A stretch of 64,000 bases of DNA from Octopus vulgaris (lineage: Eukaryota). Under the pieces are notes generated by a model. That model made no database searches, was not told the DNA's origin, and was given only the letters and a program-made list of their open reading frames with translations. This document shows, piece by piece, positions 30,419 through 35,219 of this stretch. Numbering within the stretch: the stretch's first letter is position 1; the number at the start of each line of letters is the position of its first letter. The stretch spans positions 170,190,001 to 170,254,000 of the forward strand of contig OX597815.1 in NCBI GenBank assembly GCA_951406725.2. The letters run 5' to 3'. The position numbers and the translations under genes were made by a program.

Positions 30419-31172
30419 TATATATATGCATATATATATTTATATATATATATATATATATATATATATATATATATATATATATATATATATATATATA
30501 TATATATATATATATATATATATATATATATATATATATATATATATATATATATATATATATATATATATATATATATATATATATATATATATATATA
30601 TATATATATATATATATATATATATATATATATATATATATATATATATATATATATATATATATATATATATATATATATATATATATATATATATATA
30701 TATATATATATATATATATATATATATATATATATATATATATATATATATATATATATATATATATATATATATATATATATATATATATATATATATA
30801 TATATATATATATATATATATATATATATATATATATATATATATATATATATATATATATATATATATATATATATATATATATATATATATATATATA
30901 TATATATATATATATTATATATATATATTATATATATATATATATATATATATATATATATATATATATATATATATATATATATATATATATATATATA
31001 TATATATATATATATATATATATATATATATATATATATATATATATATATATATATATATATATATATATATATATATATATATATATATATATATATA
31101 TATATATATATATATATATATATATATATATATATATATATATATATATATATATATATATATATTTATATA
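30419..31172. repeat. ~750-bp (TA)n array on the 3' side of the LINE
   Basis: Seen directly; only a few interruptions. Confidence 0.95.
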
Positions 31173-31259
31173 CTTTACTTTGATACTTTGATAGGTTTCG
31201 GCCATTATTGGCCCAGGCCATGTCTAACTTAATAGCACCACCTGGTGAAGTCTTTCAAG

Positions 31260-32690
31260 TCAGAATTTGGGCACTATGGCCCACTCAAGTAGAGAGTTAT
31301 TGTTTACAGAGACATATCCGGGTGTAGGGGGTTTATCCGGGATTTCTTGAAGGAATCTGTCCAAAGACTTCTTGAACCCTATAGGGTCAGTTTCTGTTTT
31401 AATGTGTTTTGGTGTAATGTTAAAGAGAGCGGGGCCAATTGAGGTGAAATAATTGTGCCGTATTGTTGTTATGAGATGAGAGTGCGATTTTTGTTTTGGG
31501 CGGATGGCACGGGGCCCAAGCCTTGGATGTACCTTAAAGGTGATGCCAACATCATTTGGGCAATGCTGATGGAATATTTTCCACATCATGCAGATGATGT
31601 AGCGCTCACGACGACGTTGGAGAGAATAGAGTTTTAGCTTTTCTAGTCGACCCCAATAGTCGAGGCCTGTCATGCCATCTATCTTTTTTGTGATTGCCCT
31701 TTGAGGTGCTTCGACTTTTTTGATACCTTGTATTGTGTGGGGAGACCACAGTGGACAACAGTATTCAAGGTGGGGTCGGGCAAAAGTGGAGAAGAGAAGG
31801 ATAATGGTGTGGATATCTCTCGACTGGAAAGTTCTGAGAATCCAGGAACACATTCTGCGGGCCATGTCAACTTTGGTGTTTATATGAGTGGCCCAGCTTA
31901 CGTTGTTGTCCACAATTACTCCCAAGTCTCTGATGTTGTTGGACGCCGCGAGAGTTTCACCTGAAGGAAGGGAGTATGGGAGTTTCAGGGCATCCTCTTT
32001 TCCAAAGTGGATTAGCTCAAATTTATCCTCGTTCAGCAGCATATTGTTTTTTTCTGCCCATTGGATAACAGCCAGTAGATCTGACTGAAGGCATGTCCGG
32101 TCACTCGCCTCATTTATGACCTTCTGTATCTTGGAGTCATCTGCAAAGATTTTTATGTTGCTGTGCTTGATGATGTCATTAATGTCATTAATGTAAATGA
32201 TGAAAAGAAGAAGTGGGCCCAGCACAGTGCCTTGCGGAACGCCACTACTGACTTTGGCTGGGCTTGATTTTACCCCTTCAACTACAACATGTTGAGATCT
32301 GTCTGTCAGGAAACACTTAATCCATTTCAGTAACTTTCCAGAGACACCAATGTTGGATAGTTTTTTCAATAGGATCTTGTGATCGACCCTGTCGAAGGCC
32401 TTACTGAAATCAAGGTAGATGACATCGGTGTTGGAGCCCTCTCCCAAAGCTCTCAAAATGTCCTCAAAGTGATGCAGGAGCTGCGTTAGGCAGTCCCTTC
32501 CATTACGGAACCCATGTTGGTTGGAGATCAGCCGTCTGTTGCTTTCCAGAAATTGGGTTATTTGAGATCTCACCACCCTCTCAAATACCTTGATGATATG
32601 AGAGGTGAGTGAGATCGGACGGTAATTCACTGCAAGGGACTTGTTTCCCTTTTTGAAAACTGGGACAACAGACTGGGACAGAAGGTTTTT
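31260..32690 (-). CDS. LINE ORF2 C-terminal part: reverse transcriptase
   Basis: NYRPISLTS, QHGFR, YLDFSKAFDRVDH, GVPQGTVLGP, FADDSK, RDLGV, RPHLEYC, LYSLQRRRER; continues the upstream ORF across a 1-nt frameshift at 32686-32690. Confidence 0.93.
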   Translation of the reverse strand, partial: KNLLSQSVVPVFKKGNKSLAVNYRPISLTSHIIKVFERVVRSQITQFLESNRRLISNQHGFRNGRDCLTQLLHHFEDILRALGEGSNTDVIYLDFSKAFDRVDHKILLKKLSNIGVSGKLLKWIKCFLTDRSQHVVVEGVKSSPAKVSSGVPQGTVLGPLLLFIIYINDINDIIKHSNIKIFADDSKIQKVINEASDRTCLQSDLLAVIQWAEKNNMLLNEDKFELIHFGKEDALKLPYSLPSGETLAASNNIRDLGVIVDNNVSWATHINTKVDMARRMCSWILRTFQSRDIHTIILLFSTFARPHLEYCCPLWSPHTIQGIKKVEAPQRAITKKIDGMTGLDYWGRLEKLKLYSLQRRRERYIICMMWKIFHQHCPNDVGITFKVHPRLGPRAIRPKQKSHSHLITTIRHNYFTSIGPALFNITPKHIKTETDPIGFKKSLDRFLQEIPDKPPTPGYVSVNNNSLLEWAIVPKF

Positions 32691-34297
32691 GGAATATAGC
32701 CAGCATCCAGTGAGTTTCTCCACAGATTAGCAAGGGGAGATGCAAGTTGGTGTCGACACACCTTCAGGACACAAGCAGGGAACCTATCGGGGCCTACTGC
32801 TGAATTGTGTTTTATTTCGTTTATCGCCGCTAAGACATCAGGGGCACTAAACGTTATGTCCGATATAGTGTGTTGGGGGTTGACATCACTGATACAGCCC
32901 AGATCGGCCATATCAGGATTGCTGAAAACAGAGCAGTATTGTTTCTGCAGTATCTCGGCCATGGATTTGGCATTATCTTGGAGAGTGCCAGTTTCGTCAA
33001 TTAGAGGGCCTACAGTGGAGACAGTGACCCTGCGTTTCCTCGCAAATGAAAAGAACACTTTGGGGTTGAGTTTGATTTTTTCAATGGCCCACTTCTCCTC
33101 AGCTGATCTTTGGTTATTGATGAGGGACTTCATGCATTGTTGGAGGTTATATTTTTTGGATTCAAGCAGTGCGATAGCCGTCGAATGTGTGTGTTGCTGT
33201 TGGCAGTACTTTAGTTTGTTAATTTTTTTGTTTGTTCTTTTTATTTTTCTGATAATGGTTTTTCTGTTTTGGGGGATTCTGCACTTTTTGTTCACAGGTC
33301 TTGGTGGGGAGTGTTTTGCACATATGTCTGTGACGGTGTCTACAAAGATCTGCCAAGATGTTTTATGGTTGGTGGAGATGTGTGTATGTGTAAAGGACCA
33401 GTCAACATTTGATAGCTCGTTCCTGATTGCATCCCAGTTGGCTTTATGGAGATCCATGTTGTCAAATGGGTGGGCTGGAGGAAGGTCACTAGGATTAGCT
33501 TTCGGCTGGTGGAATTTCATGTTACAGAGAACCATGTCATGGTCTGAAAGAAGGGTTTTTTCCACTGTAACGTTATGTATAGTGTTAGTGTGGTTACTAA
33601 ACACTAGGTCCAAAATGTTCTGATGTCTTGTTGGTGCAAGGACAAGTTGGGACAAGAAAAACTCATTCGTAAAGTCGAAAAGTGACTCTGCTGCTTCTTT
33701 GTCAGCGGTTGAGGCGGGAGTGCTTGGTTTCAAACAGTTTGTAGTCCAGTCAACACAGGGTAGATTGAAGTCTCCCATCATGAGTATGTTGCTAGAATGG
33801 CACTGTTGAATAAAGCACTTAATGCTGTTGAGGCATTCTTTAAAGCACAGTATGGGTGTTTGGGGCGGCCTATAGAGCCCAATTACTGTCAGATCATTGG
33901 CTTTGTTGTGCACGGTGACTGATTCACAGTAGCCGTTGGAGAATATACTATTTCCATCTGCCGTAAATGAATCATGCAGGAAAATGGCAGTTCCACCCTT
34001 CCTCCTGCCGATACGATCCGCGCGGATGGTTGTGAAATTCTTCACTCTCACTTCGGCTTCCAAGTGGGAGTTGTCAAGGTGGGTCTCAGTGAGAATGAAG
34101 AAAGGGATGTGGTGTGAATGGTTACCAACCCAGTCTTCAATGAATTGGACCTTCCATTTTTGTGCATTGATGGAAGGGCTGACACCTTGTGCATTGAGTA
34201 GGAATGTGGAGGTTAGTGTAGTGGCTGGTTTTGACTGTTGCAGGGGGCTTGGATTTTTTGTGTGTGTTAGTGGCAGCAATGTGGGGAATTGGTGCAC
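32691..34297 (-). CDS. LINE ORF2 N-terminal part: apurinic-like (APE/EEP) endonuclease + linker
   Basis: LLNAQG, LTETHL, RADR..KGGTAI, LYRPP, MGDFNLP, PTR..NILDLV, SDHDMV, SAVGPD. Confidence 0.92.
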
Positions 34298-34443
34298 TGG
34301 GGTAATAGCATAGGATGGTGTTGAGTGATGGCTAGAATGTTTTTGTGTATCTCTTTTGCCATGTTCAACATGGCTAAAAAAGAATTTTCCTGCTTAGGGA
34401 GCAGTTTTTGGCTGGAGGTGTGGTTGCACTGTTGGATAGATAC

Positions 34444-35219
34444 ATATATATATTTATATATATATATATATATATATATATATATATATATATATATATA
34501 TATATATATATATATATATATATATATATATATATATATATATATATATATATATATATATATATATATATATATATATATATATATATATATATATATA
34601 TATATATATATATATATATATATATATATATATATATATATATATATATATATATATATATATATATATATATATATATATATATATATATATATATATA
34701 TATATATATATATATATATATATATATATATATATATATATATATATATATATATATATATATATATATATATATATATATATATATATATATATATATA
34801 TATATATATATATATATATATATATATATATATATATATATATATATATATATATATATATATATATATATATATATATATATATATATATATATATATA
34901 TATATATATATATATATATATATATATATATATATATATATATATATATATATATATATATATATATATATATATATATATATATATATATATATATATA
35001 TATATATATATATATATATATATATATATATATATATATATATATATATATATATATATATATATATATATATATATATATATATATATATATATATATA
35101 TATATATATATATATATATATATATATATATATATATATATATATATATATATATATATATATATATATATATATATATATATATATATATATATATATA
35201 TATATATATATATATATAT
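34444..35219. repeat. ~775-bp (TA)n array on the 5' side of the LINE
   Basis: Seen directly; essentially pure after one TTT interruption. Confidence 0.95.

Follow-up and report, generated by a model that had tools for sequence, protein, structure and literature searches.

A young CR1-like LINE lineage of Octopus vulgaris with a preference for TA microsatellites and a candidate -1 frameshift site

Structure of the locus

The DNA examined here is a stretch of 64,000 nucleotides (nt) of Octopus vulgaris contig OX597815.1, referred to as the window. On its minus strand lies a long interspersed nuclear element (LINE) that encodes an apurinic-like endonuclease (APE) and a reverse transcriptase (RT). 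It is seated between two (TA)n arrays at 30419-31172 and 34444-35219, an arrangement proposed in an initial annotation and confirmed here. The element belongs to a CR1-like family, termed family 1, whose copies prefer TA microsatellites at both junctions; this preference is strong but not strict (~80%). The features of the locus, including open reading frames (ORFs) and likely target site duplications (TSDs), are as follows.

30419-31172, no strand: (TA)n array at the element's 3' junction (left array; perfect TA runs of 475 and 237 nt)
30430-30446, plus: 17-mer, third copy, at the far end of the left array
31156-31172, plus: 17-mer, likely 3' TSD copy
31173-34439, minus: 5'-truncated CR1-like LINE of family 1 (full length ~4.64 kb), assigned by identity to a reference copy
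31173-31192, minus: 3' tail of short tandem units ending AAAG(T), joined to the array at the TAT of the unit, in agreement with the target
31260-32726, minus: ORF2, RT half (RVT_1, E 6e-29)
32627-34393, minus: ORF2, APE half; the frame opens 4 codons before the slippery site, with no ATG ahead of the endonuclease
32686-32690, minus: A5 run (A6 in most copies) that splits ORF2; recurrent slip or assembly error
34267-34439, minus: 3' end of ORF1 (41-codon overlap with ORF2, -1 frame)
34274-34276, minus: CUG shortly ahead of the stop codon of ORF1, in frame with ORF2; AUG in the sister family 2 (alternative start)
34350-34383, minus: predicted RNA hairpin of 15 bp containing the slippery site (-16 kcal/mol, z -5.0)
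34375-34381, minus: candidate site of -1 frameshifting, the slippery heptamer U_UUU_UUA, in frame with ORF1
34440-34443, minus: 4 extra bases at the 5' junction
34444-34460, plus: 17-mer, likely 5' TSD copy
34444-35219, no strand: (TA)n array at the element's 5' junction (right array; 765-nt perfect run)

The other TA tracts of the window stay under ~200 bp, as had been stated: the longest other perfect run is 75 nt, and the longest other TA-type array reported by Tandem Repeats Finder is ~190 nt. The element had initially been drawn at 31173-34443 (3.27 kb). Its 3' boundary stands, while the element proper covers 31173-34439 and the last four positions are extra bases. Similarly, the 17-mer said to mark both junctions is indeed found at 31156 and 34444, but it is not unique to them, because a third copy begins at 30430. 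The window copy is 5'-truncated and covers positions 1384-4636 of a 4,636-nt full-length reference copy at 99.8% identity. The part of ORF1 upstream of 34439 has been lost and with it the Myb/SANT-like and CCCH domains, and ORF2 is broken by an A-run that is 1 nt shorter.

The family and its relatives

A DNA search of the animal's own genome (2.8 Gb), in which 40 of 2,803 candidates were scored, returned 30 loci of family 1, and among these best 40 candidates the loci share 98.5-100% identity. An exact 20-mer of the 3' end has 2,413 matches in the genome. Full-length copies are ~4.64 kb, and intact ones carry a 409-aa ORF1 and a 1,043-codon ORF2 frame. The earlier description as a young CR1-group LINE agrees with most copies being >99% identical and with the order of APE then RT in ORF2. 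A short tandem 3' tail and 5' truncation are features of the CR1 group; in family 1 the 3' tail consists of short tandem repeats instead of poly(A), and 5' truncation is seen. Moreover, the C-terminal PHLEYC..W and LQRRR motifs of its ORF2 are ones that we take to be CR1-like.

The nearest solved structures to ORF2 are those of L1 ORF2p. Among named proteins, one of the octopod Argonauta hians is closest to it, at 61% across the RT region, and other relatives are mostly unnamed metagenome proteins (up to 55% over the RT region), one cluster of which includes a member from cod. In an RT phylogeny built with no named references, family 1 falls within a long-branched 24-row clade among unnamed relatives, apart from the CR1-like family 3 that serves as a control below; a quick tree of 75 of the 84 rows gave this clade a Shimodaira-Hasegawa-like approximate likelihood ratio (SH-aLRT) value of 100. 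Zenon, to which a poly-A tail is unique and which has no ORF1 (PMC13343379), was rejected, family 1 having both an ORF1 and a tandem tail. Canonical vertebrate CR1, with its esterase-type ORF1, was also rejected, as ORF1 of family 1 consists of Myb/SANT-like and CCCH domains and has no esterase. We conclude that the window element belongs to a real lineage, young, TA-preferring and CR1-like, placed among unnamed relatives. An octopus annotation lists 13 recently active CR1 families, and the parts of that source covered contain no target analysis for them (PMC13282606).

Several copies have unusual ends or settings. Six of the shortest (L070, L084, L090, L096, L099 and L108) share a start 63-64 nt from the 3' end, and four of these have TAG in front, giving an inverted repeat with the stem of the 3' untranslated region (UTR). 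Short duplications of element sequence, often interleaved with TA, occur at the 5' junction of eight copies (L010, L023, L028, L058, L061, L071, L073 and L076). At six loci (L002, L015, L016, L046, L076 and L080) a second family 1 end lies a few kb from the first, and one 70-kb stretch (G000:C5:118.84-118.91 Mb) holds ~7 matches; such arrays were either hit repeatedly or duplicated. Other repeats, at L052:5044-5092 and at loose ends, have in common only the final 40-60 nt of the 3' UTR and differ in their tails; they are possibly further families or short interspersed nuclear elements (SINEs).

TA preference at both junctions

The junction sample comprised the 30 BLAST loci, the first 40 copies found by an internal pattern (on one chromosome) and the first 30 found by the 3' 20-mer. 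Dropped from it were 4 duplicates, 2 copies without a 3' end, 1 locus where the retrieved sequence did not include the family 1 end, 4 without a readable 5' flank and an old TA-negative copy repeated four times, leaving 85 copies. A flank was called TA-rich if at least 60% of the steps in 30 nt were TA/AT, and a lenient 5' count allowed up to 40 extra bases. By this measure the 3' flank is TA-rich in 69/85 copies and the 5' flank in 59/85 (strict) or 71/85 (lenient). Most copies (61/85) are flanked by TA on both sides in a fixed register, as expected of microsatellite-specific retroelements without long terminal repeats (non-LTR elements). The background is 4.1% (strict) and 7.5% (lenient) in 200 kb taken at arbitrary round coordinates, and 3.6% in 600 kb. 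Compared with this genomic TA frequency of 4-7.5%, copies lie mostly in TA, in keeping with the initial annotation. Among copies picked by the internal pattern, blind to the flanks, 47/59 are TA-rich against 3.6% in the 600 kb, and the enrichment of family 1 is about twentyfold. Genome-wide, 802 tails directly adjoin ten perfect TA units, a count made with another anchor than the 2,413 matches, so that the ratio is approximate; perfect TA runs make up ~3% of genome bases.

The junction is also precise. Past the tail, bases 2-6 match ATATA, each position in 81-87 of 89 copies, and they do so in most of the 16 non-array copies too. Genomic sites lie in TA-rich context in 13% of cases for TA, 42% for TATA and 64% for TATATA, whereas 40/46 (87%) insertions at TATATA sites do so (p=0.0004 against 64%). 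Thus a short motif accounts for part of the TA bias, and array context adds something beyond the 6-mer.

The habit is shared by family 2, a sister family with 80% nucleotide and 80% ORF2 identity to family 1, in which TA is found at 25/29 readable 3' junctions and at 17/18 truncated 5' junctions. As a control we used family 3, an unrelated CR1-like family of the same genome obtained from an RT search (three further copies remained unparsed). Here TA occurs at 3/21 3' junctions, two of which are by eye a leftover TAT tail, and at 1/14 5' junctions (Fisher p 2e-8 and 4e-8 against family 1). In 18 distant metagenome relatives the alternating run after ORF2 never exceeds 6 nt, several flanks being too short to tell; one of these relatives ends in TACA repeats.

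Passive accumulation, in which random insertions survive selection or assembly only in TA tracts, has been proposed in a similar form for Drosophila Waldo-A/B near CA repeats (PMC3812793). For family 1 it is extremely improbable, given that most copies are very young (>99% identical), that the enrichment is twentyfold, that family 3 persists outside TA and that the junction register is exact.

Origin and length of the arrays

Although the points of 5' truncation number in the dozens, the junctions there are TA-rich. A copy's own 5' and 3' flanks share interruption words (Jaccard 0.241 against 0.093 for swapped flanks, maximum 0.142 in 2,000 shuffles, n=75), and TA is therefore the target rather than the tail. 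Moreover, of 54 informative copies, 21 repeat their first 3' interruption within the final 80 nt of 5' flank, where 5.1 are expected (maximum 15 in 3,000 swaps). The TSD-like duplications are mostly 9-26 nt and are followed by extra bases. Because such duplications occur in family 1, the 17-bp TSD and 4 extra bases of the window copy fit the family pattern, in line with the proposal that the TSD can be read inside the microsatellite. The accompanying suggestion that the cut was made next to an interruption is not supported, since an interruption is found within 8 nt of only 27% of the 73 junctions inside arrays, compared with 39% in the background. A giant TSD of 750 bp was also considered for the window copy, as a similar word ends both arrays; it is not parsimonious, three interruptions of the left array being missing from the right.

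Could the element itself have made the TA? Arrays might be created or lengthened if the RT slipped on the tail or if read-through transcripts carried along TA of the donor. The tail units do contain TAT, a contig of one putative RNA run has the tail followed by TA, and arrays beside copies are long: 17 of 89 3' arrays measure 400 nt or more, against a maximum of 280 nt among 704 background arrays. However, TA at so many 5' truncation points and the interruption words common to both flanks argue against this origin. The 5' and 3' arrays are moreover equal in length (medians 79 and 64 nt, p=0.32), and array length shows no trend with copy age (rho -0.04). Without a 3' excess or an age trend, the initial idea that the element promotes TA expansion is unsupported, and we regard element-made TA as very unlikely.

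Arrays that hold copies have a median total length of 224 nt against 126 nt in the background, and very long TA runs stand beside 39 of 802 tails but at only 2 of 3,185 background positions (one array in 600 kb, hence a thin tail). Of the claim that the family targets long TA arrays, the TA preference at both junctions stands; a preference for long arrays is tentative and at best moderate, and most targets are short. The giant arrays of the window are extremes of a wide distribution of lengths and most likely older than the insertion.

ORF1 and the expression of ORF2

ORF1, its Myb/SANT-like domain and the slippery site are additions to the initial annotation. ORF1 begins with a Myb/SANT-like domain (PF13837) that scores 28.4 bits in isolation against a cut-off of 27; the match is below the cut-off for the whole of ORF1 (25.1 bits) and for family 2 (22.4 bits), in which the domain is conserved. 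Atlas matches of 0.86 are a lead only, a single-sequence fold model reached a predicted template modelling score (pTM) of 0.44, and no sequence match to the domain was found in the PDB. ORF1 further contains two CCCH fingers that can be aligned to those of relatives. One relative's ORF1 has PHD fingers, and none of five relatives scanned has a Myb match. A search for ORF1 homologues among proteins of 224-716 aa gave no match. That the Myb/SANT-like domain shares in choosing arrays is speculative.

ORF1 overlaps ORF2 in the -1 frame, with U_UUU_UUA at the overlap. Of 82 elements examined (80 metagenome loci and families 1 and 2), 34 have a readable junction, nine of them in the 24-row clade. 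In all nine, NNT TTT TTA stands in the reading frame of ORF1, 1-11 codons downstream of the point where the -1 frame becomes open. No stop interrupts the -1 frame for another 30-132 codons, against 2-10 stops in the +1 frame. The amino acid preceding Phe-Leu can be Ser, Pro, His or Asn, but its codon has T as the last base in every case. The odds of this by chance are ~1e-17 for the codons given the residues and ~1e-12 for the open frames, families 1 and 2 not being independent. The heptamer is kept across ~40% ORF2 identity, and 4/9 clade members lack an in-frame ATG before the endonuclease; family 1 ORF2 has none there. Of the 25 readable elements outside the clade, one carries U_UUU_UUA and three U_UUA_AAC, close to the stop of ORF1. 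Conserved heptamer and open -1 frame together are strong comparative evidence for a putative -1 frameshift.

Speaking against a frameshift, no common 3' stimulatory structure follows the heptamer (folds of -5 to -19.5 kcal/mol, pseudoknot-free), the family 1 hairpin covers the slippery site itself, and an AUG (family 2) or CUG (family 1) occupies the same position just before the ORF1 stop, making re-initiation possible. Termination-reinitiation at this codon would yield a free ORF2 protein, leaving the heptamer incidental and the Myb-like domain unfused. Stop-start translation is used by SART1 (PMC3894237), and mammalian L1 is considered likely to initiate independently of AUG (PMC5009743). 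We nevertheless consider re-initiation an unlikely route to ORF2, given the exact NNT TTT TTA and the open overlaps in 9/9 lineages, though rows are not fully independent. In four distant CR1-like elements (L257, L280, L282 and L299), U_UUU_UUA or U_UUA_AAC lies just before the ORF1 stop, with a strong stem-loop 4-11 bases on.

The A5 run that breaks ORF2 in the window is present in all 30 BLAST loci, while genome-wide 588 copies have A6 and 124 have A5. On a tree of 49 copies the two forms are interleaved, A5 being scattered over sublineages, and contigs of three other runs carry A6. A double frameshift, with a programmed split between endonuclease and RT, was rejected on these grounds. The U-run of the slippery site also varies in length, in 14/45 copies of one set and 12/29 of another. 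Contigs of other runs showed no such deletions at 5%, or at 1% for the U-run, under uneven cover. Because both runs vary between genome copies and not in these contigs, homopolymer assembly error is likely, and ORF2 of the window copy may thus be intact. Copies L016, L065 and L326 and matches in G000 with 1,468-codon frames have a U-run two bases shorter and read ORF1 and ORF2 as one frame; these may be real fusions or assembly errors.

A more far-reaching scenario is doubtful in our view: TA-specificity would have been gained when a Myb/SANT-like domain replaced PHD fingers in ORF1, and an ancient HIV-type -1 frameshift would weld this domain to the endonuclease and RT, an R2-like targeting module built by recoding that would steer the element to long TA arrays.

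Mechanism of insertion

The best explanation of the whole, to which we give a probability of roughly 0.78, is that the window holds a truncated copy of a young CR1-like lineage that inserts into pre-existing TA microsatellites, likely through APE nicking and tail priming, with ORF2 likely made as a frameshift fusion. The APE endonuclease would nick TA(T/C)ATA-type sequence, and UAU in the 3' tail may then pair with the cut strand and prime copying; the tail units of both TA families have TAT at the junction, offering 2-3 base pairs. A -1 ribosomal frameshift would yield an ORF1-ORF2 fusion protein. What the data demonstrate of this is the enrichment at both junctions, the fixed register of tail and target, the derivation of both flanks from one old array, short TSD-like duplications, a habit shared with the sister family and absent from the control CR1 family, and the conserved slippery site.

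Several points weigh against this explanation. About a fifth of the copies (16/89) lie outside TA-rich context, and the old copy excluded from the count (L101-L104, 81% identical) is TA-negative. The family 3 copies are somewhat older (95-99%), and the quick tree has no named clade references. By eye, three of four RTE-like loci end near TA, and Naiad Penelope-like elements prefer (TA)n (PMC8557442). TA tracts are thus a shared sink, and array fragility may contribute.

Taken to its limit, this would be structure-driven capture, in which melting, cruciform formation or breakage of TA arrays lets any active LINE land there with little reading of sequence. The effect of array context beyond the 6-mer and the greater length of occupied arrays are in its favour, as is the use of TA by RTE-like and Naiad elements. 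We consider it quite unlikely, however, because family 3 in the same genome is not flanked by TA and because the tail register is fixed and the 3' ends intact, even outside arrays. The catalytic motifs of the APE are also intact by alignment.

Other features of the window

A second RT element lies on the plus strand at 47776-50751, with a 741-codon frame (RVT_1 and zf-RVT), between (ATA)n and (AAT)n; it presumably resembles Dong/R4. Similar fragments occur at 2848-3400 and 5788-6200, and three 89-bp tandem copies with 94% matches at 35993-36262. Elsewhere in the genome, the RTE-like copies L201, L203 and L207 end beside TA-rich repeats, L203 with TA on both sides.

Comparison with known systems

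A TA-preferring CR1-like lineage is new among microsatellite-targeting LINEs. A survey of the literature by titles and the starts of abstracts, outside Repbase reports and supplements, found neither a TA-targeting CR1 nor this slippery site. The TA habit gives the element an abundant and probably harmless landing site. Dong, of the R4 clade, has a restriction-like endonuclease, unlike family 1. Its target, TAA, is like that of family 1 an AT-only microsatellite, though another repeat (PMC3812793). Closer are Waldo (ACAY), Mino (AC), Kibi (TC) and Koshi (TTC), which like family 1 are APE-type non-LTR elements in one microsatellite class; TA is not among the targets listed for them, whereas family 1 is CR1-like with a preference of ~80% (PMC3812793). 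Target-specific APE elements come mainly from the R1 and Tx1 clades (PMC4640811), and their way of locating microsatellites is poorly understood (PMC4640811, PMC3812793). The TA-preferring lineage, its non-targeting relatives and the control from the same genome form a natural before/after pair for domain swaps.

Naiad (PMC8557442) and the rice Micron miniature inverted-repeat transposable elements (PMC3812793) share the (TA)n target, with TSDs that are hard to read in the repeat, but they rely on a GIY-YIG endonuclease or on DNA transposition, in contrast to the APE-primed LINE insertion of family 1. In RTE-clade LINEs and SINEs the first target base correlates with the 3' tail repeat, a proposed priming aid; their signature is a T stretch upstream of the TSD, whereas family 1 resides in TA arrays (PMC6007223). 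CR1-group LINEs share with family 1 an APE and RT ORF2, a short tandem 3' tail and frequent 5' truncation (PMC4120745, PMC13343379), and the main texts of these two sources contain no occurrence of Myb, SANT, CCCH, frameshift or microsatellite.

Translation of LINE ORF2 is an open question (PMC3894237, PMC5009743); the first 300,000 characters of a review of recoding contain no CR1 entry (PMC5009743). Lastly, TRE5-A and TRE3-A of Dictyostelium are APE LINEs that are said to need a -1 frameshift for ORF2 and whose ORF1 aids targeting through contact with TFIIIB. They differ from family 1 in belonging to the L1 clade and in reaching tRNA genes by protein contact, with no microsatellite involved (PMC5911963).

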